Assembly: GCA_016930235.1 (NCBI GenBank)
Contig: JAFGHI010000030.1
Coordinates: forward strand, 43,834 to 107,833
DNA from: Candidatus Omnitrophota bacterium
Lineage (GTDB): Bacteria; Omnitrophota; Omnitrophia; Omnitrophales; Aquincolibacteriaceae
Length of the DNA stretch: 64,000 nt
Direction of reading: 5' to 3'
Made by a program: the position numbers and the translations under genes. The notes below the pieces were generated by a model, which did no database searches, was not told where the DNA came from, and saw only the letters and a program-made list of their open reading frames with translations. The first letter of the stretch is position 1, and each line of letters starts with the position of its first letter. This document shows, piece after piece, positions 7,392 to 62,664 of the stretch.

Positions 7392-7421
7392 TTGACACTT
7401 CTGATCTGCCTGTAATATAAT
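7392..7421 (+). promoter_or_regulatory. Sigma70-like promoter upstream of lysS (TTGACA-N18-TATAAT)
   Basis: TTGACA lies at 7392-7397 and TATAAT at 7416-7421, about 45 nt before the lysS start. Confidence 0.4.
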
Positions 7422-7467
7422 TCACGTTTAGTTTATAACCCGTTAAAAATGAACATGTAAGGAAAAA

Positions 7468-8895: not shown

Positions 8896-8928
8896 GAAAA
8901 ACGGGTCAGGGATTTTAAAAGAGGTTTT

Positions 8929-10936: not shown

Positions 10937-10952
10937 AGAATAGAATTACGGA

Positions 10953-11891: not shown

Positions 11892-11921
11892 CTATTTTTT
11901 GTTTGAAGGAGTCCAAAGAGA

Positions 11922-12440
11922 ATGGTTTGTAATCTTTGCGGGACAAAAGAAGCGACGATCCATTTGACGGAAATCATCAACAATCAAATGATCGAGATCC
12001 ATATTTGTGAAGAGTGCGCAAATGAAAAAGGCACGGATTTTAAGACTCATTTTAGTTTCGGCGATCTTTTAGGGGGAATACCGGAATCCGGAAAGTCGCC
12101 AAAAACCGGCGAGAAGAAACTACCCAACCGGTGCCCTTCCTGCGGCTTGACTTATGAACAGTTCGGGAAAACGGGACGTTTAGGGTGCGGTGCCTGCTAT
12201 GACAGCTTTGCGCGTTTGTTGATCCCTTTGATTAAACGGATTCAGCGCTCGATTCGTCATGTGGGCAAAAAACCCGGTAAGGTCCTGAGCGAGCAAAAAA
12301 GTCCGCAAACTCTCAAAGATTTACAGGAGCGTTTAAGGAAATGCATTCAAGGTGAGGAATTTGAAGAGGCGGCAAGGTTGAGGGATGTGATTCGGCAAGT
12401 GGAAGAGAAACAGAAGAAACCTAAAAGGGGTAAAGAATGA
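11922..12440 (+). CDS. mcsA: Protein-arginine kinase activator McsA (four CxxC zinc fingers plus a UVR motif)
   Basis: It has four CxxC pairs, CNLCG, CEEC, CPSCG and CGAC. A C-terminal UVR motif (EEFEEAARLRDVIRQ) is present. It sits immediately upstream of mcsB and clpC. Confidence 0.75.
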   Translation: MVCNLCGTKEATIHLTEIINNQMIEIHICEECANEKGTDFKTHFSFGDLLGGIPESGKSPKTGEKKLPNRCPSCGLTYEQFGKTGRLGCGACYDSFARLLIPLIKRIQRSIRHVGKKPGKVLSEQKSPQTLKDLQERLRKCIQGEEFEEAARLRDVIRQVEEKQKKPKRGKE

Positions 12441-13501: not shown

Positions 13502-13575
13502 TCGATGCATTAAATGATTTGTCAATAGTGTCATCATCAATAGGTCAAGAATAGGCCATAGGAGCCTTTGGGAGG

Positions 13576-16035
13576 TTGAGAATGTTCGATCGTTTTACGG
13601 AAAGAGCAAGGAAAGTCATCATTTTAGCGAAGGAAGAAGCAAAACGGTTTAATCACGATTATATCGGGACTGAACACATCTTGCTGGGATTGATCAAGGA
13701 AGGGGAAAGTGTTGCTGCGGCGGTTTTGCAGAATCTTGGGTTGTCCCTTGATACGATTCGATTGGAAGTCGAAAAACTGGTCCAGTTTGGACCCAGTACC
13801 ATCGTTTCCGGAGATATTCCGTTTACTCCGAAAGCCAAGAAAGTGATTGAACTGGCAATGGATGAGGCGAGACGGCTGGGGCATAACTATATCGGGACAG
13901 AACATCTTTTGCTGGGCTTGATCAAGGAAGGCGAAGGCGTAGCGAGTCATGTTTTAATGAATGTCGGCCTTGATTTAAACAAGGTTCGTGCAGAAGTCAT
14001 TAAGCTTCTGGGTTCGTCAACTCCCAGCGGGTCGGGGGGCGGACCCGGCGGGGGAGGCGGGGTTGGAACGGCGCGCGGCAAGACAAAAACTCCGGCATTG
14101 GATTCCTTCGGTCGTGATTTGTCCACTTTGGCACGGGACGGCAAGCTGGATCCGGTTGTCGGACGTTCGGATGAAATCGAGCGTGTGATTCAAATCCTTG
14201 CGCGCCGTACGAAGAACAATCCGGTCCTTTTAGGCGAGGCAGGTGTGGGAAAGACGGCCATTGTGGAAGGTCTTGCTCAAAAAATTATCGCGGGGGATGT
14301 TCCCGAAATCTTAGCGGACAAGAGGATTGTTGTTTTGGATCTCGCGCTGATGGTTGCCGGAACAAAATACCGTGGTCAATTTGAAGAACGTATTAAAGCC
14401 GTGATGGATGAAATCCGTCGTACAGAGAATGTGATGATTTTTGTCGATGAGATCCATACCTTGGTAGGAGCAGGGGGAGCGGAAGGCGCAATCGATGCTT
14501 CGAATATCCTGAAGCCGGCCCTCGCACGCGGTGAAATACAATGCATTGGTGCAACGACGTTGGATGAATACCGCAAATATATTGAAAAAGATGCGGCGTT
14601 GGCCCGGAGATTTCAAACAATCATGGTGGATCCGCCTTCGGTGGATGAGTCCGTGCAGATTTTGAAGGGTTTGCGGGACCGATACGAAGCGCATCATCGA
14701 GTCAAGATAACCGATGAGGCCATTGAGGCTTCGGTGAAACTTTCGGATCGCTATATTTCGGGGCGTTTTCTGCCGGATAAAGCGATTGATATCATCGATG
14801 AAGCAGCCTCTCGTGCGAGGTTATCCGTAACGACGCTTCCTAAAGATCTCAAAAAGATTGAAACGGAGATCGAGGCCTTCAAAAGAGAAAAAGAAGCTGC
14901 CATTAAAGCACAGGATTTTGAGAAGGCGGCCAAGCTTCGTGATCAAGAGCGTCAGGCCAAAGAAGAATTGACGCGCGTCAAAAAGAATTGGAAAGAATCG
15001 AAATCGGAAGTTGAAGTCCAAGTCACCGAAGAAGACATTTCGCATATCGTATCGAAATGGACAGGGGTTCCTCTGGCCCGGCTGGAAGAAAAGGAAACGG
15101 CGCGGCTCCTCAGGATGGAAGATGAACTCCATCGCCGGATTATCGGCCAGGATGAAGCGATCCGGGTCATTTCCCATGCGGTTCGCCGCTCACGTTCGGG
15201 TTTGAGAAATCCGAGGCGTCCGATCGGTGCGTTTATTTTCCTGGGGCCGACCGGCGTTGGCAAAACGCTTCTCGCACGGGGGCTTGCGGAATTTATGTTT
15301 GGTGACGAGGATGCCATGGTGGCTATTGATTGTTCAGAATATGGAGAGAAGTTTAATGTTTCGCGTTTAGTGGGTGCCCCTCCCGGGTATGTGGGGTATG
15401 AAGAGGGAGGACAATTGACTGAAAAGGTACGTCGGCGGCCTTATTCTGTGGTGTTGTTTGATGAGATTGAGAAAGCCCATCCCGATGTTTTTAACATCAT
15501 GCTTCAAGTGATGGAGGAAGGGCGTCTCACCGATTCTTACGGTCGGAAAGTTGATTTTAGAAATACCATTTTGATCATGACTTCGAACGTAGGGGCGTCT
15601 CTTATCAAACGCGACGGTGATTTAGGGTTCAAACCTCAGATGGAAGATATTAATTATGAATCATTAAAGCGAAAGCTGCTTGATGAGACAAAAAAGGTCT
15701 TCCGTCCTGAATTTTTGAACCGTGTGGATGATACGATCGTTTTTCATCCGCTCACTCGCCAGGATCTCGAGCAGATTATCATGATCGAATTGCGGGAAGT
15801 GACTGACCGGTTGAAAGATAAGAAACTGGACTTGGATCTCTCTCCCGAGGTCATGAAATTCTTGATCGACAAAGGCTATGACCCTATCTTCGGTGCACGA
15901 CCGCTTAGACGTACCATTCAACGGTATATCGAAAATATTTTGGCTGAGGAGATCCTTTCCGGGAAGTTCAAGGAAGGGGATAAAATTCAGGCGGTTTTGC
16001 GGGGAGAGCAGATTCAATTTGAGAAAACATCTTAA
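13576..16035 (+). CDS. clpC: ATP-dependent Clp protease ATP-binding subunit ClpC
   Basis: It has doubled Clp_N repeats, two AAA+ modules ([16 protein letters not shown]) and a UVR linker ([10 protein letters not shown]). Confidence 0.9.
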
Positions 16036-16051
16036 TTCCGAAGAGGGGTTT

Positions 16052-17965
16052 ATGCGGTTTGGTTTTTGGCGTGTCTTCATAGGAAGTTTTTTGCTTCTTT
16101 CATGCCTTGCGGGGATTCCCTACCTTTGGGTGACTTCGGAAGTTCAAAAAGACGAGTTTAAGGCGCTTGCTGAAAAAAAAGCAAGCGAATTTCTAAGCGC
16201 CCATGTCGAGATCGATCGCATTCGTGTCGGGATGATCAACCGTGTGGCCTTGAGCGGGCTTAGGATCCGGTCGCAAGCGAAGGACGATGACGCTTACCGG
16301 ATTCATGTTGATCAAATTGTTTTTCGGTATCATCCCCTTGCGTTTTTAAGCCGCAAGCTGTCGGTTCCCTCGGGGATCATTTTGCAGGCCCCGAAACTGC
16401 TGGTCAAACAGACGGAGTTCTCCTATGACCTGCTTAAGGATTTTAAATTCGGTACGGGTGCGGAAAGTGTCTCGTCGCTTGAGTTTAAAGGGGGCGAGAT
16501 ATTTATCTCGGTTCCGGGATTCCGATCCAATATTCATGTGCAGAATATCAATGGGGTGTTAAGACCGCAAATGAATGGCGAAATTCGTGTGAATTTAAAA
16601 GGCCATTTAAAGGGTTTGCTTAACGGTGAAGCGAAATTGCGCGGGATTGTCGCGCCCTTTGAGAGGCGTCATGATTTGGATCTTGAATTGGATTCAGTCA
16701 GTTTAAATGATGAACTTTCGATCCCGCTCAAGGATATGAAGGGCAAGATTCGATGGGTGAATCAGGAGTTTTATTTTGATGGTGTCCAGGCATCCGTTTA
16801 TGGGTGGGATACCTTGATTAAAGGAGAGCTCAAAAATCTTCGAACGGCACCCGTTCTTGCTTTCAGTTGGTCAGCGGGCAAGAAATATCCGGCTTTGATG
16901 CTGACCTTCTTGGCGGATTTTTCAAATGAATATGTTGAAGGCAGCTTGCAGTGGTTGAAAGAAGACAAGCATGTTTTTCGAGGGAATATCAAGCGAGAAA
17001 AATGGAATTTTATATTTAACGATGTTTTGGTAGATGACCAATATTCAGGTAGCGGCCATCTGGATGTGGAATCCGGATACTCCCGTTTTCAATTTCAAAG
17101 AGGGGCGCAGCGTTTCGCCGCGCAGACAAATTTGCGTGATTTGAACTTCCATCTTGCTTTTAATCTGGAGCACGCCAAAATTTACGGACTCGATTTTGTT
17201 ACCTCAGCCGAGATTGAACTCAAGCCGACGAGATCTTGGGAAGAGGGAAGGCTATGGAGTTTCGACGGTCTTTTCCGAACGGATTATTTTGTCCTGGAGT
17301 ATGCGCCATTTTCGGATCTCCAAGGCCGTTTTCAAATTAACTCGTTTGGGGTTCATGATATTTTTTGTTCTTGGGGGCACGCTTTTGAAATGAACGGTGA
17401 TATTTCATTTACATCAAAACGTCCCGAGGGAAAATTCGTGCTTCAGGTTAATGGGTTTGATTTAGCGGGCGTCAAGAATTTTGCTTCAAAACCTTTACCG
17501 AAAACGTTGGGAGGGTATTTGGAGGGTAAGTTGAAGATGGAAGGTGTTTTATCAAAACCGGAGATCTCCGGTTCTTTCAGTGTCAAAGACGGCGTTCTAG
17601 GAAAACTGGAATACGACCGCGGGATGATTCATTTTCATGGTTTTGCGCCTTATCTGCCGTTAGAAGATTCGCGAATTTTAAGGGGCAGAACCGAGCTTTA
17701 CTTAAGGGGGGCCTTGGATCTTTCGCTTGCCAATATGTTTCACGGCATTAGGATTGAAACGGCCGACCATTTTGTTTTGTGGAAAGGTTGGGAATTTACG
17801 ACCAGTGATACAGAAGGGGATCTTGAAATCGATCATATCATTTCGAGACTTCCCAAGATTGCTGTCAAGGCTGGCCTGACGACCGGAGGGGCTACTTTAG
17901 GCGATACGGATAATATGCAGCAGGATGAGGGGTATGTTGCCATTGGACCGAAGGTCCGGTTCTAA
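16052..17965 (+). CDS. Membrane-anchored periplasmic protein, AsmA/TamB-like (putative)
   Basis: It has a single N-terminal TM segment followed by a long beta-rich region. The C-terminal G-x-L-x-G periodic repeats (GGYLEGKLKMEGVLSKPEISGSFSVKDGVLGKL) are reminiscent of the AsmA_2/DUF490 domain. It sits directly upstream of mlaEFD. Confidence 0.4.
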   Translation: MRFGFWRVFIGSFLLLSCLAGIPYLWVTSEVQKDEFKALAEKKASEFLSAHVEIDRIRVGMINRVALSGLRIRSQAKDDDAYRIHVDQIVFRYHPLAFLSRKLSVPSGIILQAPKLLVKQTEFSYDLLKDFKFGTGAESVSSLEFKGGEIFISVPGFRSNIHVQNINGVLRPQMNGEIRVNLKGHLKGLLNGEAKLRGIVAPFERRHDLDLELDSVSLNDELSIPLKDMKGKIRWVNQEFYFDGVQASVYGWDTLIKGELKNLRTAPVLAFSWSAGKKYPALMLTFLADFSNEYVEGSLQWLKEDKHVFRGNIKREKWNFIFNDVLVDDQYSGSGHLDVESGYSRFQFQRGAQRFAAQTNLRDLNFHLAFNLEHAKIYGLDFVTSAEIELKPTRSWEEGRLWSFDGLFRTDYFVLEYAPFSDLQGRFQINSFGVHDIFCSWGHAFEMNGDISFTSKRPEGKFVLQVNGFDLAGVKNFASKPLPKTLGGYLEGKLKMEGVLSKPEISGSFSVKDGVLGKLEYDRGMIHFHGFAPYLPLEDSRILRGRTELYLRGALDLSLANMFHGIRIETADHFVLWKGWEFTTSDTEGDLEIDHIISRLPKIAVKAGLTTGGATLGDTDNMQQDEGYVAIGPKVRF

Positions 17966-46641: not shown

Positions 46642-47874
46642 ATGGGACAAAAGGGAAAACAAAAAGCACTTATCGGGAAGGCCGTTGTGGGGCAGTCCGG
46701 TGGCTGTACGGCTGTCATCAACCAAAGTTTGGCTGGGGTGATTGACGGCGCCTGCGGGCGCTCATGTATTACGGATCTTTGGGGCACCCGGCATGGGGTG
46801 ATGGGCATTTTGAAAGGCGAGTATATTGACCTCCAATGCCAACCCAAAGGTATTGTCAAAGCCGTTGCCAATCAACCCTCGTCCGCTCTAGGGTCGGCGC
46901 GGTACAAACTTGGCGAAGGTGAAGAATACCGGGTCATCCGGAATTTTTCGAAATCGAATATCCGGTATGTCTTTTTTATCGGGGGCAATGACACGGCAGA
47001 GACCATTCTTAGGATTGCTCATGCGGCAAAAAAGGAAAAATATGAGTTGCGAGCCATCCACATCCCAAAAACGATTGACAATGATTTGATGGAAACGGAC
47101 CATTGCCCTGGGTACGGGTCCGTTGCACGTTTTGTGGCCATTACGACCCAAGAGGCTGGTTTGGATACAAGGGCGATGCGCCATGTGGATCCGGTCAAAA
47201 TTATCGAAGTGATGGGAAGAAATTCGGGTTGGATTACCGCTGCTTCGGCACTGCTCAAGCAAAGCGAATTGGATCCTCCGCATCTTCTTTTAGTCCCCGA
47301 GATTCCATTCGTCGAGGCGAGATTTATTCAGCAAGTCCGGGAAACCATTCAAAAAGCGGGATATTGCGTTGTGGTGATCTCAGAAACAATCAGAAATGAA
47401 CAGGGTGAAAAAATTGGAGCACGCAAAGAAGGAATCCTTAAAGACTCCTTTGGTCACCAATATGTTGAAGGCGCATCCAGCGTTTTAGTCCGTCTGATTG
47501 AAAACAATCTGAAGATCCGGGCACGCTATGATAAACCGGGGACCATCCAGAGAATGTCGATGCCATACGTTTCGGAAGTGGATCAGCGTGAAGCCTACGA
47601 AGCTGGAGTTTATGCGGTGAAATGGGCTTGCGAAGGGGTGAGCGAAGTCATGGTCTCTTTTGCCCGGGTTCCGGGAAAACGTTACAGGATTCAATGCCGG
47701 ATGGTCCCTCTTAAAAATATTCCTCACCGTGAACGATATTTGCCCAACAACTTTCTCAACAAAGAGAAAACGAATGTGAGCAAGGCTTTTATGAAGTATG
47801 CTTTGCCCTTAATCGGAAAAAATCTTCCTCAATTTCCATTTCTGAGATCGGTGCAGCCACGCATCGTTGAATGA
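46642..47874 (+). CDS. Phosphofructokinase, likely pyrophosphate-dependent type
   Basis: The PFK fold is present. PKTIDND has K in place of the G found in ATP-PFKs, and GGNDT replaces GGDGS. Confidence 0.75.
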   Translation: MGQKGKQKALIGKAVVGQSGGCTAVINQSLAGVIDGACGRSCITDLWGTRHGVMGILKGEYIDLQCQPKGIVKAVANQPSSALGSARYKLGEGEEYRVIRNFSKSNIRYVFFIGGNDTAETILRIAHAAKKEKYELRAIHIPKTIDNDLMETDHCPGYGSVARFVAITTQEAGLDTRAMRHVDPVKIIEVMGRNSGWITAASALLKQSELDPPHLLLVPEIPFVEARFIQQVRETIQKAGYCVVVISETIRNEQGEKIGARKEGILKDSFGHQYVEGASSVLVRLIENNLKIRARYDKPGTIQRMSMPYVSEVDQREAYEAGVYAVKWACEGVSEVMVSFARVPGKRYRIQCRMVPLKNIPHRERYLPNNFLNKEKTNVSKAFMKYALPLIGKNLPQFPFLRSVQPRIVE

Positions 47875-47919: not shown

Positions 47920-48570
47920 GTGGATAAAGAGTTTTATCAAGCCGTTCCGGGGACTTCCTACGATGATTTGTTGAAAAGCCGAAATCCTTTTCGAAGGTGG
48001 TTTCATGTCAGTCGCTACCGCAATATTCAAAACCTTGTGGACACATGTCCTAAGCCTCATGGCAGGATTCTTGATTTGGGCTCCGCCAGTTGCTGCTGGA
48101 ATACAAAAAAATTACCGGTGGTCGGGCTTGATTTTAATGAGGCCTTATTGAAACAAGGAAAACAATGCGGCCGGTTGGTGGATTATCGGGTGGCCGATGC
48201 GGCCCATACGGGATTTGAGGACAAGAGTTTTGATGTGGTCGTCGGTGCTGAAGTTTTAGAGCACATGAAGAGTCCAGACTTGATACTCCGGGAAGTCCAT
48301 CGCGTTCTCAAAGATGACGGACGTTTTGTCATTTCGGTTCCTGATGACGGTTCTTGGACCGCTTGGAAGGCGCTCTTTTCCTTGGTGACTTTTTACTACG
48401 GGTATCTTTTAGGAGACCCGTATATGAAAAGTCAATGCGGCCACATTCATCATTTTTCCGCCAAAGATTTAAAAAAAATTTTAGTGCATAATGGATTTGA
48501 GATCGAAAAATATTTTACTTTTTGGACCCTGACGTTGTATTGTGTCGTGCGTAAATCCCCAAATTCTTAA
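47920..48570 (+). CDS. Class I SAM-dependent methyltransferase
   Basis: Motif I is ILDLGSASC. The VVVGAEVLEHM post-II motif is present. Confidence 0.75.
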   Translation: MDKEFYQAVPGTSYDDLLKSRNPFRRWFHVSRYRNIQNLVDTCPKPHGRILDLGSASCCWNTKKLPVVGLDFNEALLKQGKQCGRLVDYRVADAAHTGFEDKSFDVVVGAEVLEHMKSPDLILREVHRVLKDDGRFVISVPDDGSWTAWKALFSLVTFYYGYLLGDPYMKSQCGHIHHFSAKDLKKILVHNGFEIEKYFTFWTLTLYCVVRKSPNS

Positions 48571-48571
48571 G

Positions 48572-49555
48572 ATGATGTCTAAAATAATTTCGAATCTCCA
48601 GTATGTCCCGGCCAAGCCAATGCTGCTCGGCCGTATCTTTGTCAACTATCTTTCTCAGATAGTTCTCAGAAGGCCTCTTTTGCGAGTGGTCAATTTTGCT
48701 GTCAATTATGCCTGCCAATTGTCCTGTCAACACTGCTCGGCCGAAGGGATCAAGGATCAGAACGAGGGTCAGGGGAAGTTGACCTTAGACGAGATCAAGA
48801 AATTCTTTAAAGAAGCCGAACAGTGCGGGACAATCAATTATCATTTCACGGGAGGGGAACCTCTGCTTGAGAAGCGGTTTTATGATATTGTTTTACTCAT
48901 CCGAAAAGACAGGAATATCCTGAGTATGGTGACGAATGGTCTATTACTGGCCGAAGAAGCGGGTCGTCTGAAAGATGCAGGTTTTGATTTGATTCAAGTG
49001 AGTATTGACAGCCCTGATCCGGATGTCCATGACAAGATCCGAGGTTATCCAGGGGCTCATCAAAAGTCCTGGGAAGGTGTCGAAGCTGCGCTTGACCAGA
49101 AATTAAAAGTAATGCTTTGCATGGTGGCCACCAATGAGAACCTTGAAAACGGTGAAGTCGAAAAGCAAATTGAGATATGCCGCAAGAAGGGCATTGTCCT
49201 TCAAATTCTTCCGGCCAGGAATGTCGGAAAGTGGGAAGGCGAATCTTCGGCCCTACTTAGCGAAGAAAATAAAACTAAATTTTACAGGCTTGTCCAAGGT
49301 TTTTATGCCCGGTGGGACGGGCAGTCCAGTTATTTTCCTCCCTGCTGTTTGGCCGGAAGAGAGCGTCTCTACATTAGTCCGACAGGCGATGTCTATCCTT
49401 GCGATTTTATCCAGGAATCTTATGGAAATGTCCGAGAAGAAAGTTTGAAAAAGATATGGGAACGCATTTTAAGTACCCATCCTTATCAACAAAAAAACAG
49501 AGAATGCCTAACGGCTTTCAATGAGGAATTCATTCGACGTCCTAAACAATCTTAG
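48572..49555 (+). CDS. Radical SAM enzyme with a C-terminal SPASM/twitch-like Cys cluster
   Basis: CQLSCQHC gives the CxxxCxxC motif. The C-terminus has CCLAGRER...YPCDF. Confidence 0.75.
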   Translation: MMSKIISNLQYVPAKPMLLGRIFVNYLSQIVLRRPLLRVVNFAVNYACQLSCQHCSAEGIKDQNEGQGKLTLDEIKKFFKEAEQCGTINYHFTGGEPLLEKRFYDIVLLIRKDRNILSMVTNGLLLAEEAGRLKDAGFDLIQVSIDSPDPDVHDKIRGYPGAHQKSWEGVEAALDQKLKVMLCMVATNENLENGEVEKQIEICRKKGIVLQILPARNVGKWEGESSALLSEENKTKFYRLVQGFYARWDGQSSYFPPCCLAGRERLYISPTGDVYPCDFIQESYGNVREESLKKIWERILSTHPYQQKNRECLTAFNEEFIRRPKQS

Positions 49556-49563
49556 CCGGCATT

Positions 49564-50667
49564 TTGTCCGTTGAAAGAGAACCCTTGATGCTGAAATATG
49601 CCTTTGGAGCGTTACGAACGCTCCTTTTTCGAACTCCTTTAAATGTTCGCCTATGGGTGACGATGCGGTGTAATTACCGCTGTCAGACCTGCGGAATTCC
49701 AGAGGTCAAACCAATACCTGAAATGGGGCTAGACGAGTTTGATCAAGTTGCAGCCAATTTATCCCGCCTGGGTGTCAGCCAAGTTGTCCTCACAGGCGGC
49801 GAGGCTTTTTTAAGGAGTGATATTGTCGAAATTATTCGTTTGTTCGCGGATCGTCATTTTATTGTCCGGATTCAAACGAACGGAGGAGCGCATGTGACCG
49901 AAGATCTGCTCCGCAGAAGTTATAAGGCCGGTCTTCAGGACATCGGGATTTCGCTGGATACTTTGGATGAAGAGGCCTATGACAAATTTTGTGGGACAAA
50001 AGATGCGGTGAAAAACGCTTTACGTGTCCTCAGGTTATGTTTATCAAAATACCCCAGCCGTGGCGTCATCAGCGCCAATGTTGTCATCTCGAAAAAGAAT
50101 TTCTATGATTTACCCGCCATGATGGATTTTGTCCAGGATTTGGGGGCCTGTTTTGTGCCTTGTATCATGACCGGAAAATTCTCCGAGCTTGGGAAAAGTG
50201 AGCCAGATTATTTTCAGAGTTTTGGCCTACCTGATTTATATCAAGCAGATCCGAGTCGAGCGGAACAAATCTTTGCCGAAATCGATACACGGGTCCAGAA
50301 AGGTTATCGGATCTTGACGACCTCCCGGATTTGGGATGACCTAAGACGCTATATGAGGACAGGAGATTGCCGATGGCGTTGTTTAGCAGGAGAGATTTCT
50401 TTTGATATTACTCCGGACGGAGCCATTGCACCTTGCAGTGATACCCTTCAGGCCGCTTATGAACAGCCTGTCCTGAATGCTAAAAGCAGTGATTTTATTG
50501 AACGATTTAAGGGTTCCGGATATAGGGAGAAATGCCGGTCCTACCAGAATGAATGCCAGGGATGCCTCTACGGCTGTTACCGGGATCCTTTTTATTTAGT
50601 GACTGATCTTCGCATCCCTTTTGAGGTTTTTTTAAAATCCATTCGGTTTAAAAAGTTTCTTCATTGA
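49564..50667 (+). CDS. Radical SAM enzyme with a C-terminal SPASM domain (second copy)
   Basis: It has CNYRCQTC. The C-terminal Cys cluster is CRWRC...APCSD...CRSYQNECQGCLYGC. Confidence 0.75.
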   Translation: MSVEREPLMLKYAFGALRTLLFRTPLNVRLWVTMRCNYRCQTCGIPEVKPIPEMGLDEFDQVAANLSRLGVSQVVLTGGEAFLRSDIVEIIRLFADRHFIVRIQTNGGAHVTEDLLRRSYKAGLQDIGISLDTLDEEAYDKFCGTKDAVKNALRVLRLCLSKYPSRGVISANVVISKKNFYDLPAMMDFVQDLGACFVPCIMTGKFSELGKSEPDYFQSFGLPDLYQADPSRAEQIFAEIDTRVQKGYRILTTSRIWDDLRRYMRTGDCRWRCLAGEISFDITPDGAIAPCSDTLQAAYEQPVLNAKSSDFIERFKGSGYREKCRSYQNECQGCLYGCYRDPFYLVTDLRIPFEVFLKSIRFKKFLH

Positions 50668-50668
50668 T

Positions 50669-50851
50669 ATGAGAAAAACTTTTTTGGGGCTCCTTTTCAT
50701 TGTCGCGCTGCACGCGGTTTACACGTTTCGCGCCTTTCCTGTCTTGGATTTGGCGTTTTCGACGCCCCTCCTGAGCATTGATTACGGAACTCATTATTTT
50801 CAAACTCGGCAAACCTTAGGATTCGAGAAGATACGAATTTATCTCTCATGA
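50669..50851 (+). pseudogene. Decayed N-terminal remnant (~50 aa) of a third paralog of the downstream membrane-protein genes
   Basis: FRAFPVLDLAFSTPLLSIDYGTHYFQTRQTL aligns to the N-termini of the two downstream proteins (VFPVYQLDPGTPILINDFSIHHYQTEQML and VFPVQKLDLQTPILTHDMAFHHYQTQQAL). It then diverges and stops. Its stop overlaps the next ATG (ATGA). Confidence 0.45.
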
Positions 50852-52722
50852 AAAAAACGATTCTTTTGCTGCTTTTACTCGTTCTTGCGCAAGGATTATT
50901 TATTTATCGAGTATTTCCCGTTTATCAATTGGATCCCGGGACGCCGATTTTGATTAATGACTTTTCGATTCATCATTATCAAACCGAGCAGATGCTCTAT
51001 TTATTGAAACATTTCGGCAAGGTTTCGGGGTACGATCCTTTCTTTATGGCGGGTTATCCCGGCGTTGTGGTGAATTTGACGGATAATTACGGAGTGGCTT
51101 TCACCCTTGGTTTGTTGTCGATGTGGCTTCCTTTGGCGATTGCCGAAAAGTTATTTCTTATCGGCATGCTGTTCCTATTTCCCATTATTATTTATCTGGC
51201 AGCCGTTTGCTTAGGGCTGAGCCGGTCTCAGAGTTTTTTAGCCGGGATCCTGTTAGTCGTGGTGATGCAATATCATGAGTATTACCGGTCTTTGATGAAC
51301 TGGGGGCTTTATAGCTTTGTGATCTCTATCTTTCTATCGATCCTTTGGTTTTCGCTGATTGTCCGGTATTTTAAAGAACGAAGTCGGAGAAAATGGCTGG
51401 CCGCGCTTCTGGTGGGGGCTTATACCGTATCGGTTCATCCGCTTTCGGTGCCCATGTTTTTGAGCTTCCTTGGACCGTATCTTATCTTCGATGCCAAGAA
51501 ATTGACACGCCGCTTCTTTAACGGTCTTTTGGTGATGATGCTGTTAATCGTTCTGGCCAACAGTTATTGGATCGTCCCGTTATTGCTTCACAGCGGTTAT
51601 TATCATCAGGAAGCGATCTATCAAAAGGCGTTTGGGTTTGAAAAATTCATCAAAGATTTAATGAGTGTTGACCAAGCCATCTTTCATATCCTGATGGTCC
51701 TATCCGTGATCGGAACGCTTATTTCATTGCGAAAGAAAAAAATAGAAGCTCCGGTCGTCCTGGCTCTTTGGTGTGCCTTTTTTATTTTCTACGGCATCAG
51801 TTATTTCGGGGAACATTCGCTGGTTCAGAATTACTTTTCACATATCGAACCCGCAAGGTTTATCACCGCGGCTGTTTTTTTGATCCCGCTCTTGACGGTT
51901 TATGGGATCTCCGGTTGGGGGGAGGAGCGGATCCGGAATCTAGCTGTTCTCTTGATCTTCTCGATGATCGCGATGCAGGCATATTGCTTAAGTTCGATTC
52001 AACATCAGGATAACTGTACGGCAAGTCGTATCAAGAGGGTTCTGTGCGGGAACATGTGCCAACCGACGGAATGGGGAAAGGATATTATGGCTGAAGGAGG
52101 AGACAGGCTCGTGCGTCGAATTCGCGAGGTCACAGATCCGAGTGCGCGAATCTTATTGGAAGATCACATTTGGGACTTTGTGTATTGGGATTCACGTTTA
52201 CCGGCTTTAATGTCGATGCTAACAGAGCGAAGCTATATCGGGGGCCCTTTCCCGCACTTGTCGACAAAATATAATTTTGCGAACTTCTCAAGCGGGATGA
52301 TCTTTGGAAGGGCCATCCAGGAGATCCCGATCGGTGAGTTGATGGAGTATATGAAGCTCTACAATGTCGGATGGGCTGTTATTCATAGCCCCGAGGCCAC
52401 TCGATATTTTCAAATGCATGGAGTTCGATTCCGGTTTCTCGGCAAGGTACCGGGCCCCGAGGGGTGGGAGTTTAGATTTTATCGAGTAGCCTCTGAGAGG
52501 AATTATTTTGTTCGAGGCAAGGGCAAGGTTACGATGGAATGGAACGAATTAAAATTATCCGGATTAAGTGAGGGTGAAATTATTTTAAAGTTTCATTACG
52601 CAAGGGACCTTCGGACGAAGCCGCCCGTTTTAATCCAAAAGGTCGATTATTTGGATGATCCCATGGGGTTTATCAGATTGGAGAACCGTGAGGGCTATGA
52701 CACGATCCGGATTACTCAATGA
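50848..52722 (+). CDS. Large polytopic membrane protein with a C-terminal soluble domain (unknown family, GT-C-like architecture)
   Basis: It has ~9-10 predicted TM helices in the first ~370 aa, followed by a ~250-aa hydrophilic domain. Confidence 0.6.
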   Translation: MKKTILLLLLLVLAQGLFIYRVFPVYQLDPGTPILINDFSIHHYQTEQMLYLLKHFGKVSGYDPFFMAGYPGVVVNLTDNYGVAFTLGLLSMWLPLAIAEKLFLIGMLFLFPIIIYLAAVCLGLSRSQSFLAGILLVVVMQYHEYYRSLMNWGLYSFVISIFLSILWFSLIVRYFKERSRRKWLAALLVGAYTVSVHPLSVPMFLSFLGPYLIFDAKKLTRRFFNGLLVMMLLIVLANSYWIVPLLLHSGYYHQEAIYQKAFGFEKFIKDLMSVDQAIFHILMVLSVIGTLISLRKKKIEAPVVLALWCAFFIFYGISYFGEHSLVQNYFSHIEPARFITAAVFLIPLLTVYGISGWGEERIRNLAVLLIFSMIAMQAYCLSSIQHQDNCTASRIKRVLCGNMCQPTEWGKDIMAEGGDRLVRRIREVTDPSARILLEDHIWDFVYWDSRLPALMSMLTERSYIGGPFPHLSTKYNFANFSSGMIFGRAIQEIPIGELMEYMKLYNVGWAVIHSPEATRYFQMHGVRFRFLGKVPGPEGWEFRFYRVASERNYFVRGKGKVTMEWNELKLSGLSEGEIILKFHYARDLRTKPPVLIQKVDYLDDPMGFIRLENREGYDTIRITQ

Positions 52723-54616
52723 AATAAAACCGCCTAAAGTGTCAGCGATCTTCATGATCGTTCTCCTGATGGGTTTGCAGATTATCTTTGTGGTGAAGGT
52801 TTTCCCGGTGCAGAAACTTGATCTTCAAACGCCGATCTTAACCCATGACATGGCTTTCCATCATTATCAGACGCAACAGGCACTTTATTTGCTGAAACAT
52901 TTCGGCAAAACTTGGGGATATGATCCTTTTTACATGGCCGGTTATCCCACGGCGGTCGTGAATATGACGGATAATTTCGGGGCTGCCTTTGCGGTCGGAT
53001 TTCTTGCGTTTTTTCTGCCCTTGGCTTTGGCCGAAAAGGTTTTTCTGTTGGGGATAATGATTTTATTTCCCGTATGGATCTTTTGGGCAGCTAAAAATTT
53101 CGGATGCAGCGACCAGGAATCCTTCCTTTCAGGAATAATAGTGACATTGGTTTTACAACATCATCCTTTCTATGTCAGCATGATGAACTGGGGACTCTAT
53201 AGTTTTGTGCTTGCGGCGGCATTCTCGGTATGTTGTTTTTCGCTCATCGTTCGTTTTGTTGAAAGGCAGGATAATAGGGCTTGGTTATGGATGACCATCC
53301 TCGGGAGCTATCTGGTGTCGGTTCATCCGCTTTCGGTGCCGCTCCTTTTTTTGTTTCTCATACCGTATCTTATTCTTTCGAAAGAGGCTTGCCAGTTTAA
53401 TAATTTGATTCGAATAACGGCATCTTTTCTCGTGATGTTTTTCATGAACTTATACTGGATCTTGCCCCTTCTAAAGGCAAGCCCTCTGTACAAGCATGTC
53501 CCGACATATGTTCAGGCATTCGGAATAGAACAGTGGATGGCGGATGTCAAAGATTTGAAGCTTGTCCTCTTCCATGTATTTGCCCTCATCGGTGTCATGG
53601 CACCTATTTTTGTGTGCAAATCAGAAAAAACAAGCCGAAATTGGGTCTTATCGCTGGGGACGGCCTTCATGATCTTTTATGGTTTATCTTATTTTGGGTT
53701 TTACGGGCCTTTCAAATATTCATTAGCCCATATTGAACCGGGGCGGTTCATCGTTGTCGCCATATTTGTGATTCCCTTGCTATCGGCTGTGACCCTAAGC
53801 GAAATTGCCCGGAGCCATATTCGGAAAATGAATATATTGTTAATTGCTTTTGTTTTTTTGTCCCAACTGTTTTGTCTTTATTCCGCGGGAAAGATCAAGA
53901 AAGGGGATTTTATTTATCAAAAATGCGATCTATTGTTTTGTTCGAGTTATCGTGAGCATTCAAGATGGGGAGACGATGTCATGGCCGAGGGCGGCCAGGC
54001 TTTAGTGGATGCGATTAAACAATACACCGATTCTTCTGCCCGTATCTTATTGGAAGATCACACATGGGCTTGGGCTTATTGGGAATCGAGATTGCCGGCA
54101 TTGTTGGCGGGATTGACCGGACGGGAGTATATCGGAGGCCCGCTTAATCTTAGGATCCAACATCAGTTCGCGCATTTTGAAATCGGGAAATTATTTGGCC
54201 GATCTATTTTAAGTCTTCCGGTTGCGAAATTCTTAGATTATGTAAGGCTCTATAATATCGGCTGGGCTGTCATCCATAGTGATGAAGCCAAAATGTATGT
54301 CAGGCGGCATCCGAAAAGGTTTACCTACTTAACAAGTCTACAAGGCGCTTACGGTATAAGATTTGATCTTTATCGGATCGCAAATCATGAATCTTATTTT
54401 GTTAAGGGTGAAGGTAAAATCGAGCGTGTCGGATGGAACGAGATTGTCCTGAGCAATCTATCCAAGGGACCCGTAGTCATCAAGTATCACTACTTTGAGG
54501 GTTTGAAGACGGATCCAAAGGTGGAAATATCCCGAGTAGAAGTTTTGGATGACCCTATAGGATTTATCTCATTAGATAATTCGAAAGGGTATGCCCGGAT
54601 TCGTATAACCACATAA
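52697..54616 (+). CDS. Paralog of the preceding polytopic membrane protein
   Basis: It is collinear with the upstream protein at ~45% identity across both the TM and C-terminal domains. The start is uncertain (52655, 52697 or 52739). Confidence 0.6.
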   Translation: MTRSGLLNEIKPPKVSAIFMIVLLMGLQIIFVVKVFPVQKLDLQTPILTHDMAFHHYQTQQALYLLKHFGKTWGYDPFYMAGYPTAVVNMTDNFGAAFAVGFLAFFLPLALAEKVFLLGIMILFPVWIFWAAKNFGCSDQESFLSGIIVTLVLQHHPFYVSMMNWGLYSFVLAAAFSVCCFSLIVRFVERQDNRAWLWMTILGSYLVSVHPLSVPLLFLFLIPYLILSKEACQFNNLIRITASFLVMFFMNLYWILPLLKASPLYKHVPTYVQAFGIEQWMADVKDLKLVLFHVFALIGVMAPIFVCKSEKTSRNWVLSLGTAFMIFYGLSYFGFYGPFKYSLAHIEPGRFIVVAIFVIPLLSAVTLSEIARSHIRKMNILLIAFVFLSQLFCLYSAGKIKKGDFIYQKCDLLFCSSYREHSRWGDDVMAEGGQALVDAIKQYTDSSARILLEDHTWAWAYWESRLPALLAGLTGREYIGGPLNLRIQHQFAHFEIGKLFGRSILSLPVAKFLDYVRLYNIGWAVIHSDEAKMYVRRHPKRFTYLTSLQGAYGIRFDLYRIANHESYFVKGEGKIERVGWNEIVLSNLSKGPVVIKYHYFEGLKTDPKVEISRVEVLDDPIGFISLDNSKGYARIRITT

Positions 54617-54713
54617 AATTAAGGTATCAGTTCAAAATCGCGACAATAAGTAACATTCCTATCATCGACACCTGAATCATCCAATGCCCAAAGAAAAAAC
54701 GAATGGACGATTA

Positions 54714-54742
54714 TTGACATTTCAAACATCGTATGGTATATT
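54714..54742 (+). promoter_or_regulatory. Near-consensus sigma70 promoter, TTGACA-N17-(TGg)TATATT
   Basis: TTGACA lies at 54714-54719 and TATATT at 54737-54742, with an extended -10 TG at 54734-54735. It sits in a 300-bp AT-rich gap. Confidence 0.5.
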
Positions 54743-54754
54743 TTAAGCATTATA

Positions 54755-54784
54755 AATGTATTATAAAGTAATTTATAATACATT
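54755..54784. promoter_or_regulatory. Perfect 13-bp inverted repeat AATGTATTATAAA-gtaa-TTTATAATACATT just downstream of the predicted TSS
   Basis: It is read directly from the sequence, at about +6 to +35 relative to the predicted TSS. Confidence 0.45.
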
Positions 54785-54910
54785 GTGTCGATCGTAAAGT
54801 TGAAAATTTAGAGTTTTCCTCCGCGGGTGAGGGAGTGCTGAAGACTAAAGATCATCTCTTTAGAGGAAGGCATTTCCTCTCCCCTTTTTAGAGTGTAGTC
54901 GGATCTTTGC

Positions 54911-55138
54911 ATGAAGGCCGACTGTTGCCGGTTGAAAAGAAGTGGAGAGGGAATTCAAAGAATGGGGTTAACGGCAATGTCACGAAATATCAGAAAAGTC
55001 ATCTCATTGATTTCGAATCTGTATCGATTGGAAAAGAAACTCACCGAGATAAAGTCCAAATGCGTCAATAAAAAAGAAGGCAAATGCACGATGGAATTTC
55101 TCGGCGATAACTATCCCGTCTTCGGTCATCTATCATAG
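54911..55138 (+). CDS. Putative small Cys-containing peptide of 75 aa, or 58 aa from the internal ATG at ~54962 which has a GGAGAGGG RBS
   Basis: The ORF is bracketed by the strong promoter and a strong terminator. A helical region is followed by ...SKCVNKKEGKCTMEF... The RBS for the first ATG is weak. Confidence 0.25.
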   Translation: MKADCCRLKRSGEGIQRMGLTAMSRNIRKVISLISNLYRLEKKLTEIKSKCVNKKEGKCTMEFLGDNYPVFGHLS

Positions 55139-55161
55139 TTTAAAATTGGGACGGCAATCCG

Positions 55162-55210
55162 GGGTTAGAAATCGATGGAGTATAGGCCTTGATTTCTAAC
55201 CCTTTTTCTT
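55162..55210 (+). terminator. Rho-independent terminator (12-bp stem GGGTTAGAAATC/GATTTCTAACCC followed by TTTTTCTTT)
   Basis: A perfect 12-bp inverted repeat is followed immediately by a T-tract. Confidence 0.6.
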
Positions 55211-55463
55211 TGCAGCCCCAAAAGTTATCCGAAGATATCATCCCGATAGGACCGAGGATGCTATGGCCGAGAGTGACGGCATCTATGGGTTCTATTCTGT
55301 AAACCCCTGAGAGAGTAAGGGATTGAGAAGAAAGTCTCGATGAGTCAATAAAATACTGAATAAGTCGATGATATAGAGGATAGATTCGAAGCATTGATGG
55401 GGAGGAAAAGAAGTTTAAACCGCAAGAGTATGAACAAAGTGTCCGGACGAAAGGGGGATCTCA

Positions 55464-55646
55464 TTGCTTGAATCGGTTACGGATTCCATAGGGCAAATAG
55501 TCAATCAGCTGACGGAAATATTCAGAAGTACCGTTAGTTACCTGGGATATAACTATGGGTTAACAGAGGGGCAAAGCAACGCTTTGATAATGGGAATCCT
55601 GGGGATTTTGATCTTTATCATTCTCAGGAGCTTTTGGGGGAAATAG
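55464..55646 (+). CDS. Putative small membrane peptide of 60 aa with a TTG start
   Basis: An RBS-like AAGGGGGA lies 5 nt upstream. The C-terminus is a hydrophobic helix. Confidence 0.25.
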   Translation: MLESVTDSIGQIVNQLTEIFRSTVSYLGYNYGLTEGQSNALIMGILGILIFIILRSFWGK

Positions 55647-55767
55647 CCTGCTATTTCCCTGGGGTGCGCCGCTCTTTCCCTAGATTCAGAAAATTCCTTC
55701 CGCAGTCGGGTTAAACTAGCCAATTCATTCCTAACATGTTACAATGCAATTCTTTAAGGAGGAAATT

Positions 55768-56049
55768 GTGCCTACCTACGAATATATTTGCGATCATTGC
55801 GAACATGAATTCGAGCTGTTTCAATCGATGAAAGATAAGCCGGTTAAGAAATGCCCTTCTTGCGGGAATCTAAAGGCAAGAAGACTGATCGGACGGGGAG
55901 CCGGGATTCTATTTAAGGGAAGCGGTTTTTACCAAACGGATTATCGATCCAAAGGTTATCGTGAAAAATCAAAGGAGGAAAAATCCGGAAAGAGCCCTTC
56001 GAAGTGTTCTCCGGACTCATGTCCTTCATGTCCTCATGCGAAATCCTGA
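55768..56049 (+). CDS. FmdB-family zinc-ribbon protein
   Basis: A GTG start is preceded by AAGGAGG. The sequence is (M)PTYEYICDHCEHEFE...CPSCG. The Cys-rich tail is CSPDSCPSCPH. Confidence 0.7.
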   Translation: MPTYEYICDHCEHEFELFQSMKDKPVKKCPSCGNLKARRLIGRGAGILFKGSGFYQTDYRSKGYREKSKEEKSGKSPSKCSPDSCPSCPHAKS

Positions 56050-61074: not shown

Positions 61075-62664
61075 ATGAAATCTCCGATGAACGCCAAGAA
61101 AGTATCGAAAAAAGTGATGCAAGTTTTGACGCGATGTTCCAAAAGCGTCCGTCAGGGAACGAAGCTGTTTTCGGATTGGGCCCTTGAAAAAGGAATCAGG
61201 AAAACAACCTCCACTTATTTTCTTTCCCGCTGGTTATTCCTGCGTTTATTAGGGCTCATTTACTTCATTGCTTTTGTCTCTCTAGGGGTTCAAATCCTGG
61301 GTCTTTTGGGATCCAACGGCATTCTTCCGGTCGAAAAATTTTTGGAAGTTCTCAAAGAACAGGCGGGGTGGAAGCGTTTCTGGATTGCGCCGAGCCTTCT
61401 TTGGATTTATCCGGGGGATATGGCCTTGCAGCTATTATGCTGGGCCGGTGCAATTCTCTCCGTAGTTCTCATGATCGGTTTCGCTCAAGGTCCGGTGCTT
61501 GCACTCTTATGGTTCCTTTATCTGTCCCTGATCAGTTCCGGGCAGGATTTTCTTTCTTTTCAATGGGACGTTCTTTTATTGGAGGCCGGATTCTTGGCGA
61601 TATGGATTGCCCCCAGCGGTTTTTGGCCCCGTTCGGCATGGAAGACGCCTGTTCCCGACGGGATCCGCCGGTTATTTTATTGGCTGATTTTTCGGGTCAT
61701 CTTTTCTGCCGGTTATGTCAAACTTATCAGTCAAGACCCTTTCTGGGCCAACCTTACGGCGGTGAAATATCATTACCAGTCACAGCCGCTCCCGACCCTT
61801 TTTGCATGGTATCTGTATCAGCTTCCGCTTGGGTTTCACAAAATGACTGTCGTTGCGATTTATCTTTTCGAGCTGGCCGTGCCCTTTCTTATTTTTACCC
61901 CGCGGCGTTTAAGAAGAATCGGGGCTTTGCTTTTGATGCTGTATCAGGTCTTGATCGCACTTACCGGCAATTTTGGTTTTTTCAATTGTCTGATTATTTG
62001 TCTTTGCGTCCTTCTTTTCGATGATGCCGTTTGGCCGCGTGCCTTGGTCAAACAAATCGTCAAGAGACGTTCGCGAGCGGAGGCGAAAAGCGTTTGGTCC
62101 GTCTGGGTTTTAAAGCCTCTTGTCGGGACATTGGTCTTTCTTTCTGCGGTTTCATTTCTGCAGACGGGAAAAAAAGAGAGTATTTTATTTCAGCCTCTTA
62201 AGGGAATTTATAATTTCTTTAAGCCGTTTCGTTCGGTCAATACCTACGGAATTTTTTCGATTATCATTGAACGCCGGCATGAATTAATTTTAGAGGGCTC
62301 CAACAACGGTGAAGTTTGGCGGGCGTATACCTTCCGGTATAAACCCGATGATTTAAAGACGCCGCCCAAATGGATTTCACCCTATCACCCGCGGCTGGAT
62401 TGGCAGATGTGGATCGCCGCTCAAGGGAATCTTCAGCAGAATCCTTGGCTCATCAATTTTTGTGTCCGTTTGCTGGAGGACTCTAAGGACGTCCTCCGGT
62501 TAATTGAAGGGAGCCCCTTTGACGAATGGCCGCCGAGATACATCCGTCCTGTTCTCTATGAGTATGAATTTACGGACGAGGACACGAAGGAAAAGACGGG
62601 AATGTGGTGGGAAAGAAGACGTTTAGGGCTTTACAGTCCGGTGATTTCTCTTCCGGATAAATAA
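61075..62664 (+). CDS. Lipase maturation factor (LMF1)-family polytopic membrane protein
   Basis: It is multi-TM. FQWDVLLLEAGFLAIW is an LMF-like motif. Confidence 0.55.
   Translation: MKSPMNAKKVSKKVMQVLTRCSKSVRQGTKLFSDWALEKGIRKTTSTYFLSRWLFLRLLGLIYFIAFVSLGVQILGLLGSNGILPVEKFLEVLKEQAGWKRFWIAPSLLWIYPGDMALQLLCWAGAILSVVLMIGFAQGPVLALLWFLYLSLISSGQDFLSFQWDVLLLEAGFLAIWIAPSGFWPRSAWKTPVPDGIRRLFYWLIFRVIFSAGYVKLISQDPFWANLTAVKYHYQSQPLPTLFAWYLYQLPLGFHKMTVVAIYLFELAVPFLIFTPRRLRRIGALLLMLYQVLIALTGNFGFFNCLIICLCVLLFDDAVWPRALVKQIVKRRSRAEAKSVWSVWVLKPLVGTLVFLSAVSFLQTGKKESILFQPLKGIYNFFKPFRSVNTYGIFSIIIERRHELILEGSNNGEVWRAYTFRYKPDDLKTPPKWISPYHPRLDWQMWIAAQGNLQQNPWLINFCVRLLEDSKDVLRLIEGSPFDEWPPRYIRPVLYEYEFTDEDTKEKTGMWWERRRLGLYSPVISLPDK

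Follow-up and report, generated by a model that had tools for sequence, protein, structure and literature searches.

A methyltransferase, two radical-SAM enzymes and paired predicted GT-C membrane proteins in an uncultured Omnitrophica bacterium: a candidate route to a modified envelope sugar

The locus at positions 47920-54616 lies in a 64-kb stretch of DNA from an uncultured Omnitrophica bacterium (the whole stretch is called the window below) and contains six tightly packed ORFs, all on the + strand. These encode a class I methyltransferase (MT), two radical-SAM enzymes (rSAM1 and rSAM2), a 60-aa gene fragment and two polytopic membrane proteins (MemA and MemB). MT (47920-48570, 216 aa) has a GTG start with an AAGGTGG Shine-Dalgarno sequence upstream. 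The ATG of rSAM1 (48572-49555, 327 aa) lies 1 nt past the MT stop, in an ORF that is open from GTG 48542. For rSAM2 (49588-50667, 359 aa) the NCBI start is ATG 49588, yet the ORF is open from TTG 49564, 8 nt past the rSAM1 stop. The 60-aa ORF (50669-50851) begins 1 nt past the rSAM2 stop and shares an ATGA overlap with memA (50848-52722, 624 aa), followed by memB (52697-54616), which encodes 639 aa from an NCBI start that overlaps memA by 26 nt and whose ORF is open from 52655. The co-directional, closely spaced arrangement described in the earlier note was thus confirmed, with gaps of 1-8 nt or overlaps. This spacing argues against a chance juxtaposition, a reading that we regard as very unlikely, in which MT and the two rSAMs would produce some unrelated cofactor or small molecule while the membrane protein pair downstream serves an envelope function of its own. 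Promoter and terminator scans, which came out at chance level, would fit such a juxtaposition but say nothing for or against a single transcript.

The 60-aa ORF had been counted as a gene type of its own, which did not hold. It is 42% identical to MemA over 50 aa (BLASTP, E 6e-9; a DNA alignment was also made) and holds the first transmembrane helix (TM1) and the D..H motif of the membrane protein family, while it has no Pfam or NCBIfam match. It is what remains, in diverged and pseudogene-like form, of the 5' end of a third membrane protein paralog.

MemA and MemB share 46% identity over 627 aa, in line with the ~45% noted before. The AF2 model of MemA shows about 13 helices up to residue ~384 followed by a soluble alpha/beta domain of about 230 aa, so the earlier description of a transmembrane region with a soluble C-terminal domain stands. 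In this model the N-terminal multi-helix transmembrane module with its long extracytoplasmic loops has a predicted GT-C fold, and the resemblance to GT-C glycosyltransferases that had been proposed is therefore upheld for the fold of MemA. GT-C glycosyltransferases use polyprenyl-phosphate sugars as donors in the synthesis or decoration of LPS, teichoic acids, arabinogalactan and glycoproteins, and new GT-C families are still emerging, mostly via structure. We assign MemA as a predicted GT-C-fold membrane glycosyltransferase of an undescribed family. D38, just after TM1, is invariant in all 12 aligned members and H42 is conserved at 90% or more; the conserved motifs are D38-x3-H42, YDPFFMAGYP, EPxRF and RILxED. 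All 20 residues that are invariant in the family are present in MemB, among them D38, Y62-P64, H197, N238, W241, P335, R337, R434 and E438 (MemA numbering). Neither protein matches a Pfam family above the gathering threshold (PMT_2, YfhO, DUF6541 and others), although weak DUF6541 matches occur in 3/12 members, with a best E of 6e-7. The family, which has no Pfam model and is now assigned a GT-C fold, comprises over 1,000 clusters at 50% identity. Even if the rest of the system proves ordinary, the "hypothetical protein" genes JW893_04630 and JW893_04635 gain a GT-C glycosyltransferase annotation.

An oligosaccharyltransferase of the STT3/AglB/PglB type was considered for MemA and rejected: the 12-sequence alignment has no conserved WWDxG-like motif corresponding to WWDYG, and W509, within YNVGW, is the sole Trp that is invariant in the C-terminal domain. 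Identity of the MemA family to AglB/PglB/STT3 is 10-12%, and its conserved motifs are different ones. The neighbourhoods differ as well, since MemA homologs adjoin polyprenyl-phosphate glycosyltransferases (PPGTs) of the monosaccharide type and not oligosaccharide assembly genes. Three of the five independent MemA homologs lie among glycosylation genes: P0004 is near a GT2, PMT_2, YfhO, a DegT aminotransferase and a hexapeptide acyltransferase, P0006 near PMT_2 and a UDP-glucose dehydrogenase, and P0009 near a GT2, an rSAM/SPASM protein, two B12-rSAMs and a second GT2. The GT2s adjoining P0004 and P0009 have GtrB, DPMS and ArnC as their best PDB matches.

Both radical-SAM enzymes carry the N-terminal CxxxCxxC motif reported in the earlier note (CQLSCQHC and CNYRCQTC) and match PF04055 with 89 bits (rSAM1) and 76 bits (rSAM2) against a cut-off of 29.5 bits, which places them by motif and core domain in the radical SAM superfamily. 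The Cys clusters at their C-termini are present too, but the label "SPASM" was too strong. PF13186 exceeds its cut-off of 21.5 bits in rSAM1, with 39.8 bits, but not in rSAM2, with only 16.5 bits. A full SPASM domain has CX9-15GX4C, CX2CX5CX3C and a final Cys, that is 7 Cys and two auxiliary clusters, and it was rejected for both enzymes, which have only three (rSAM1) and four (rSAM2) conserved C-terminal Cys. In 16 rSAM1 orthologs the invariant cysteines are C48/C52/C55 and C259/C277/C312, the C-terminus having CX12GX4C and one more invariant Cys; rSAM2 has C273, C291, C331 and C334, that is CX12GX4C with an invariant CX2C, in one four-Cys auxiliary-cluster motif. The CX12GX4C carried by both points to a twitch or partial SPASM domain, and the two enzymes would fit such a domain with one auxiliary cluster. 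About 17 rSAM1 orthologs were found in Omnitrophica and Elusimicrobiota, at 47-59% identity. None of the curated NCBIfam rSAM equivalogs, including the anSME-type, BlsE, SkfB and AlbA models, reaches its cut-off (AhbD 119 bits against 500, MoaA 114/325, PqqE 89/381, MftC 69/265, Tes 48/450), nor is there any sulfatase/anSME pairing, so the rSAMs do lie outside the well-characterised families.

The characterised SPASM/twitch rSAMs are mostly peptide maturases. By sequence the best PDB match of rSAM1 is SkfB (E 2.5e-12), which counts against a sugar substrate, and SkfB, SuiB, PqqE and CteB are among the top Foldseek matches of rSAM2. One could thus propose that a ribosomal peptide or surface protein is the target of the rSAMs and MT and is also glycosylated by MemA and MemB, acting as OST-, PMT- or DPY19-like enzymes. 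A Cys-rich 63-aa DUF6485 ORF just upstream of the related L175 module would suit this proposal, but it is missing from the window and from the related loci L009 and L172. Scanning the flanks gave no conserved precursor-like small ORF, and a plausible precursor was found neither in nor beside the operon. The operon has no PqqD-like match (Pfam, NCBIfam), and neither a peptidase nor an exporter is encoded. The N-terminal extensions ahead of CxxxCxxC, about 47 and 28 residues in the two rSAMs, are too short for a RiPP recognition element (RRE). A RiPP maturase system was rejected on these grounds, with no precursor gene in the flanks and no RRE or PqqD. As MemA also lacks the oligosaccharyltransferase motif and MT is consistently fused to a DPMS-like GT2 in relatives (see below), peptide or protein modification is unlikely.

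The earlier note had treated the six genes as a candidate unit. Homologs of the membrane proteins adjoin orthologs of these rSAMs in 0/5 independent cases, so the six-gene block is not conserved as such. The conserved unit is MT-rSAM1-rSAM2, which recurs in the same order at L009, L172 and L175/L176 in Omnitrophota and Elusimicrobiota (phmmer E 1e-55 to 1e-119). That MemA-family genes occur without these rSAMs in five independent contexts is what a chance juxtaposition would predict. Against it, a polytopic membrane protein lies near the triad in four independent genomes, the close rSAM orthologs having other such proteins in place of MemA. At L172 a 519-aa, 9-TM protein is directly adjacent and overlaps the rSAM2 stop, at L175 a PMT_2-like protein is encoded two genes downstream of the triad, and L009 has 564-aa and 630-aa polytopic proteins together with Wzy_C and a GT2. 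PMT_2 is the one GT-C family match among these partners, and a weak one. Among the distant rSAM2 homologs, L173 lies beside PMT_2, L092 beside PMT_2 and YfhO, L012 beside a 10-TM protein, and L011 adjoins two paralogous polytopic proteins and an NAD-dependent sugar epimerase. The partners in L172, L009, L011 and L012 show no Pfam match and no detectable similarity to MemA, and we assume their GT-C nature from architecture. In a crude and uninformative enrichment comparison polytopic neighbours were found in 6/10 loci versus 34/73 generic rSAM loci.

MT itself matches Methyltransf_11 (E 5e-18) and Methyltransf_23 (E 2e-16) in Pfam and no NCBIfam family at or above cut-off. It shares 45-49% identity with its orthologs in L009, L172 and L175, each of which is fused to a C-terminal GT2 domain that is missing from the MT of the window. 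In L175, residues 178-402 of this domain align to residues 25-243 of the P. furiosus dolichol-phosphate mannose synthase (DPMS) with E 4e-14. The Pyrococcus enzyme is the only strong PDB match that spans the whole domain; the next GT2 matches have E about 1e-4 and cover the N-terminal half only. The best NCBIfam matches, AglJ and PpgS, are both far below cut-off. Judged by its full-length likeness to DPMS, the fused GT2 is probably a polyprenyl-phosphate glycosyltransferase of the DPM1/GtrB/ArnC type, the canonical donor supplier of GT-C enzymes, and its fusion to MT is a further argument against chance.

Another explanation is membrane-lipid remodelling. Here the substrate of the rSAMs would be a lipid chain, as it is for Tes, GrsA or Mss, or else a phenolic or acyl lipid, which MT would methylate and the GT-C enzymes would glycosylate at its headgroup. 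Several distant rSAM2 homologs do lie in lipid-type contexts, which counts against a sugar substrate: L173 has a type III PKS, an ICMT methyltransferase, an ACP, an AMP-ligase and an FAD monooxygenase, the genes at L174 include two B12-rSAMs, an LpxL-like acyltransferase and a GT2, and at L092 there is an amine-oxidase/desaturase-like flavoprotein. Yet similarity to Tes is confined to the rSAM core, with the score far below cut-off given above, and the close orthologs L009, L172 and L175 have no lipid-synthesis genes by the triad but the PPGT-type GT2 fusion instead. We consider lipid remodelling improbable.

Most likely the operon serves to add an unusual modified sugar to the cell envelope, by an uncharacterised route. 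The earlier suggestion that a membrane-associated substrate is modified by rSAMs and methylation stands in this form, with the substrate more probably a glycan or lipid-linked sugar than a peptide. We lean, if only by a little, towards a pathway of the Arn/Gtr style: radical tailoring and methylation of a sugar, its attachment to polyprenyl phosphate and its transfer outside the membrane by the GT-C pair. Its logic would be that of Arn, Gtr, CsbB-YfhO and DPM1-PMT, plus radical-SAM tailoring; for it we infer what the substrate and acceptor are, in which order the steps run and what chemistry each rSAM performs. A cytoplasmic sugar, as nucleotide sugar or already linked to polyprenyl phosphate, would be modified by the two twitch-type rSAMs through H-atom abstraction from a sugar C-H, with BlsE-like decarboxylation, dehydrogenation and epimerisation as candidates, and MT would then methylate the modified sugar. 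A DPM1/GtrB/ArnC-type GT2, MT-fused in relatives, would load it on polyprenyl phosphate, and the lipid-linked sugar would be flipped across the membrane. MemA and MemB, perhaps as a heterodimer or at two different sites, would transfer the sugar from the putative polyprenyl-linked donor to an envelope acceptor, which may be LPS, another glycan or a surface protein. Neither the operon nor the rest of the window holds a GT2, flippase or sugar-nucleotide gene, nor the DPMS-like domain; the donor-loading step is thus missing locally, and the GT2 must be encoded outside the window.

A more specific and tentative proposal, to which we give a lower probability, is that the triad performs radical-SAM chemistry on a polyprenyl-bound or polyprenyl-destined sugar and feeds a widespread, unrecognised GT-C family that installs a new modified envelope sugar in Omnitrophota and Elusimicrobiota. 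We know of no rSAM that acts on a polyprenyl-linked sugar. If true, the triad would be the first radical-SAM branch of PPGT/GT-C envelope-glycosylation pathways, a conserved cassette coupling GT-C-type glycosylation to two uncharacterised radical-SAM enzymes. Tailoring of the donor sugar would mean new carbohydrate radical chemistry and, for candidate phyla about whose surfaces almost nothing is known, a novel envelope structure.

Within the literature that could be searched, the combination of MT, two rSAMs and membrane proteins is undescribed, as the earlier note had supposed. With BlsE, the cytosylglucuronate decarboxylase of the blasticidin S pathway, there is 17% identity; its model TIGR04466 is not among the top rSAM2 matches and scores 58 bits against a cut-off of 400 for an rSAM1 ortholog, the margin over peptide maturases is small and the genomic context is entirely different. 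The mycofactocin system likewise combines an rSAM-SPASM protein (MftC), a GT2 (MftF) and a sugar methyltransferase (MftM), but the MftC model scores 57-69 bits against 265 and MftM 22 against 200, the operon lacks MftA and MftB (peptide/chaperone), MftD and MftE, and mycofactocin itself has no GT-C enzyme. Closest are the polyprenyl-phosphate-sugar/GT-C systems (GtrA/GtrB/Gtr*, ArnC/ArnT with ArnA/B/D, CsbB/YfhO, DPM1/PMT). They differ in that no described one uses two radical-SAM proteins and a methyltransferase for tailoring, in the MemA family with its weak DUF6541 matches and no Pfam model, and in that the operon here has no GT2 and no flippase gene was identified. Shared with them are the GT-C-fold transferase with a periplasmic C-terminal domain, the DPMS/GtrB/ArnC-like GT2 within the module of relatives and, with the Arn pathway, tailoring enzymes encoded alongside. 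Paralogous GT-C pairs like MemA and MemB follow the pattern of Pmt1/Pmt2 and EmbA/EmbB.

The locus at 47920-54616 consists of six ORFs, all on the forward strand: a methyltransferase (MT; 47920-48570, 216 aa), two radical-SAM enzymes, rSAM1 (48572-49555, 327 aa) and rSAM2 (49588-50667, 359 aa), a fragment ORF of 60 aa (50669-50851) and two polytopic membrane proteins, MemA (50848-52722, 624 aa) and MemB (52697-54616, 639 aa), which are identical to NCBI JW893_04630 and JW893_04635, respectively, on a source contig of 126,764 bp. ORF calling agrees with the earlier note that these ORFs are co-directional and tightly packed; neighbouring ORFs either overlap or lie 1-8 nt apart. This spacing is also the sole basis for reading them as a single operon, since promoter and terminator scans of the locus were at chance level only. 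The block is flanked upstream by a gene for a PPi-type phosphofructokinase (46642-47874) and downstream of memB by an ORF-poor spacer of 1.1 kb (54617-55743). The spacer has a lower GC content (0.417 in the bin 54001-56000), and at 54714-54742 a sigma-70-like site comes close to the consensus, with 11 of 12 positions matched and an extended-10 TG present; no convincing small ORF was found in it and no Rfam family was matched, either there or across the window. The remaining window encodes housekeeping functions (suf, metH, clpC, mla, ispDF, aminoacyl-tRNA synthetases, mutS and mutL). Downstream of mutL, a 529-aa protein with nine transmembrane (TM) helices (61075-62661) strongly matches the lipase maturation factor domains (LMF1 PF06762, E 3e-53; LMF1_C, E 3e-49), a family known chiefly from eukaryotes.

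MT is a generic class I methyltransferase (Pfam Methyltransf_11/23) with no NCBIfam curated family above cut-off. Both radical-SAM enzymes contain the CxxxCxxC motif and a significant PF04055 core, and both miss every NCBIfam cut-off, the best scores being 119 against 500 for AhbD, 114 against 325 for MoaA, 89 against 381 for PqqE and 48 against 450 for Tes. Based on these scores and on the gene context, PqqE and MoaA were rejected, as were an anSME paired with a sulfatase, lipid synthases of the Tes/Grs type and the mycofactocin system. The conserved C-terminal cysteines are C259-X12-G-X4-C277 plus C312 in rSAM1 (16 orthologs) and C273-X12-G-X4-C291 plus C331-X2-C334 in rSAM2 (29 homologs). 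These patterns indicate twitch or partial-SPASM domains and not the canonical seven-cysteine SPASM domain, and each enzyme probably carries one auxiliary cluster. Only ~17 close orthologs of rSAM1 were found, from Omnitrophica and Elusimicrobiota, and ~85 full-length homologs of rSAM2, from Omnitrophota, Deltaproteobacteria, Vicinamibacteria, Thermoanaerobaculia and one Methanosarcinales archaeon; several of the rSAM1 orthologs come from contigs equal in length to those of close rSAM2 homologs.

MemA and MemB are indeed paralogs (46% identical) and do not match any family in Pfam or NCBIfam. Their suggested resemblance to GT-C enzymes, the membrane glycosyltransferase superfamily, was borne out by fold, on which MemA is predicted, together with MemB, to be of the GT-C type. 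A word-indexed search returned only 15 relatives of MemA, and a profile built from 12 of these, run against a library of 1.84 billion proteins, found 3,051 cluster representatives. With 1,053 of them at E<1e-30, nearly all full length (about 600-700 aa), the MemA family is large yet unannotated; among the 12 members in the alignment, just three match DUF6541, and these weakly. The alignment shows an invariant D38 directly after TM1, H42 kept at 90% or more, an invariant YDPFFMAGYP loop, H197, N238, W241 and an EPxRF motif, and a soluble domain that opens with an invariant RILxED. The WWDYG motif is absent from this alignment, which rules out an oligosaccharyltransferase in the strict sense. 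The 60-aa ORF between rSAM2 and memA is 42% identical to the first 50 residues of MemA (E 6e-9) and retains TM1 and the D..H motif in diverged form. As a diverged copy of the MemA N-terminus it is, judging from its sequence, the N-terminal remnant of a third GT-C paralog and not a precursor peptide, and it looks like the leftover of a partial duplication.

The neighbourhoods of five independent MemA homologs were analyzed. One (P0004) has a GT2 protein, PMT_2, YfhO, a DegT aminotransferase, a Gfo/Idh/MocA oxidoreductase and a hexapeptide acyltransferase; a second (P0006) has PMT_2 and UDP-glucose dehydrogenase; a third (P0009) has two GT2 genes, an rSAM/SPASM gene and two B12-rSAMs; the neighbourhoods of P0003 and P0007 are uninformative. 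The small GT2 proteins that adjoin P0004 and P0009 have GtrB, DPMS and ArnC as their best PDB matches. Such enzymes make polyprenyl-phosphate monosaccharides, the donors for GT-C enzymes. Orthologs of rSAM1, rSAM2 or MT appear at none of the five loci, so the six-gene block is not conserved as a unit.

What is conserved is the order MT-rSAM1-rSAM2, which is kept in all three close relatives that could be retrieved (phmmer E 1e-55 to 1e-119): an Omnitrophota genome (L009, GCA_043805415.1), GCA_964579435.1 (L172) and a locus represented by L175 and L176, whose rSAM1 is the ortholog P0295, named Elusimicrobiota by NCBI. In each of the three, a GT2 domain is fused to the C-terminus of MT. Its match to the dolichol-phosphate mannose synthase of Pyrococcus spans the entire domain (E 4e-14, with other GT2 structures at about 1e-4); AglJ and PpgS are the top NCBIfam matches, both below cut-off. 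Each module also has a polytopic membrane protein beside it, a different one every time. In L172 the protein has 519 aa and nine TM helices, and its gene overlaps the stop of rSAM2. In L175 the partner is encoded two genes further downstream and resembles PMT_2, with a score of 25.1 bits where the cut-off is 26.1. L009 has two such proteins, of 564 and 630 aa, and with them Wzy_C, GT2, additional rSAMs and a B12-rSAM fused to a GT2. GT-C support for the partner is limited to the window, by fold, and, weakly, to L175, by the PMT_2 match. Comparison of the MemA family with the partners by hhalign gave no detectable link (probability 0.2% for L009 and 18% for the more distant locus L011), and relaxed Pfam scans of the partners in these two loci found nothing. 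The triad of L009 lies within a cluster (1540-16145) that holds eight radical-SAM genes, among them this fusion and one for a MiaB-like enzyme, and also an asparagine synthase. In L175 a Cys-rich, 63-aa DUF6485 protein with 8 Cys is encoded ~200 bp upstream of the module (7351-7542; also L176 686-877); no such ORF turned up in L009, L172 or the window.

What recurs is a GT2 of the polyprenyl-phosphate glycosyltransferase type, together with a methyltransferase, a pair of twitch rSAMs and a polytopic partner that is interchangeable. We lean, by a small measure, towards a glycosylation pathway in the style of Arn, Gtr and CsbB/YfhO, the chemistry of which we infer throughout. A sugar would first be prepared, with the radical-SAM enzymes among its tailoring steps, then loaded on polyprenyl phosphate, flipped, and transferred by the GT-C enzyme. 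The known pathways follow the same logic and differ from the present cassette in the radical-SAM tailoring enzymes. Abstraction of a sugar C-H by an rSAM, for example in a hexuronate decarboxylation like that of ArnA, is plausible because of a resemblance to BlsE, as a lead and not a result. The window operon does not have the GT2 domain that makes the case in its relatives, and no GT2 glycosyltransferase was found anywhere in the 64-kb window, so either the donor-loading enzyme must be encoded elsewhere or the pathway differs here. Another option is the modification of a protein or peptide, which we consider unlikely: there is no precursor ORF and no N-terminal extension of RRE length, peptidase and exporter are both missing, and the GT2 fusion is conserved. 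That the genes of our locus are adjacent by coincidence is, in our estimate, improbable. No description of the MemA family or of the rSAM cassette was found in the searchable literature. The GT-C assignment contributes a new family to a known superfamily and the cassette a variation on a known pathway type, in which the coupling to rSAMs is new; this coupling would be noteworthy to specialists and can be tested.

Distant rSAM2 homologs were also collected. A scan of genome contigs with rSAM2 alone gave zero relatives, while a second scan and a metagenome scan, made from alignments with generic rSAM patterns (TGGEPLLR and similar), matched nearly always unrelated MoaA-like rSAM loci and gave only L012, L092 and L093 as useful ones. 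Polytopic neighbours, counted up to a distance of 6 kb as proteins of at least 400 aa with at least 7 TM, occur at 6 of 10 rSAM2-family genes and at 34 of 73 generic rSAM loci, an uninformative comparison made with a weak TM predictor (a PMT_2 protein was given only 4 TM) and with a background inflated by transporters. The settings of the distant homologs resemble those of the close relatives. In L092 the rSAM2 homolog lies beside PMT_2, YfhO, rSAM/SPASM and B12-rSAMs, and in L173 it adjoins PMT_2; the neighbourhood of L010 is uninformative. The L173 pair belongs to a phenolic-lipid-type cluster (7968-15522) of a Vicinamibacterales genome with a type III PKS, an ICMT-like methyltransferase, an ACP, an AMP-ligase and an FAD monooxygenase, and in L174 the homolog stands beside B12-rSAMs, an LpxL-like acyltransferase and GT2. 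These PKS and acyltransferase contexts favour lipid remodelling, to which we nevertheless give a low probability. In L012, from a Methanosarcinales MAG, the neighbours are a SPASM rSAM, a 10-TM protein and, at 4405-7848, a 1,148-aa fusion of four domains (HAD phosphatase, NTP transferase, CofD-like phosphotransferase and GT2). Finally, L011 (7107-9984) has two tandem 470-aa polytopic proteins, 85% identical and with no Pfam family, which lie between an NAD-dependent sugar epimerase and the rSAM2 homolog that directly follows them; this pair parallels memA and memB, though it is from a different family.
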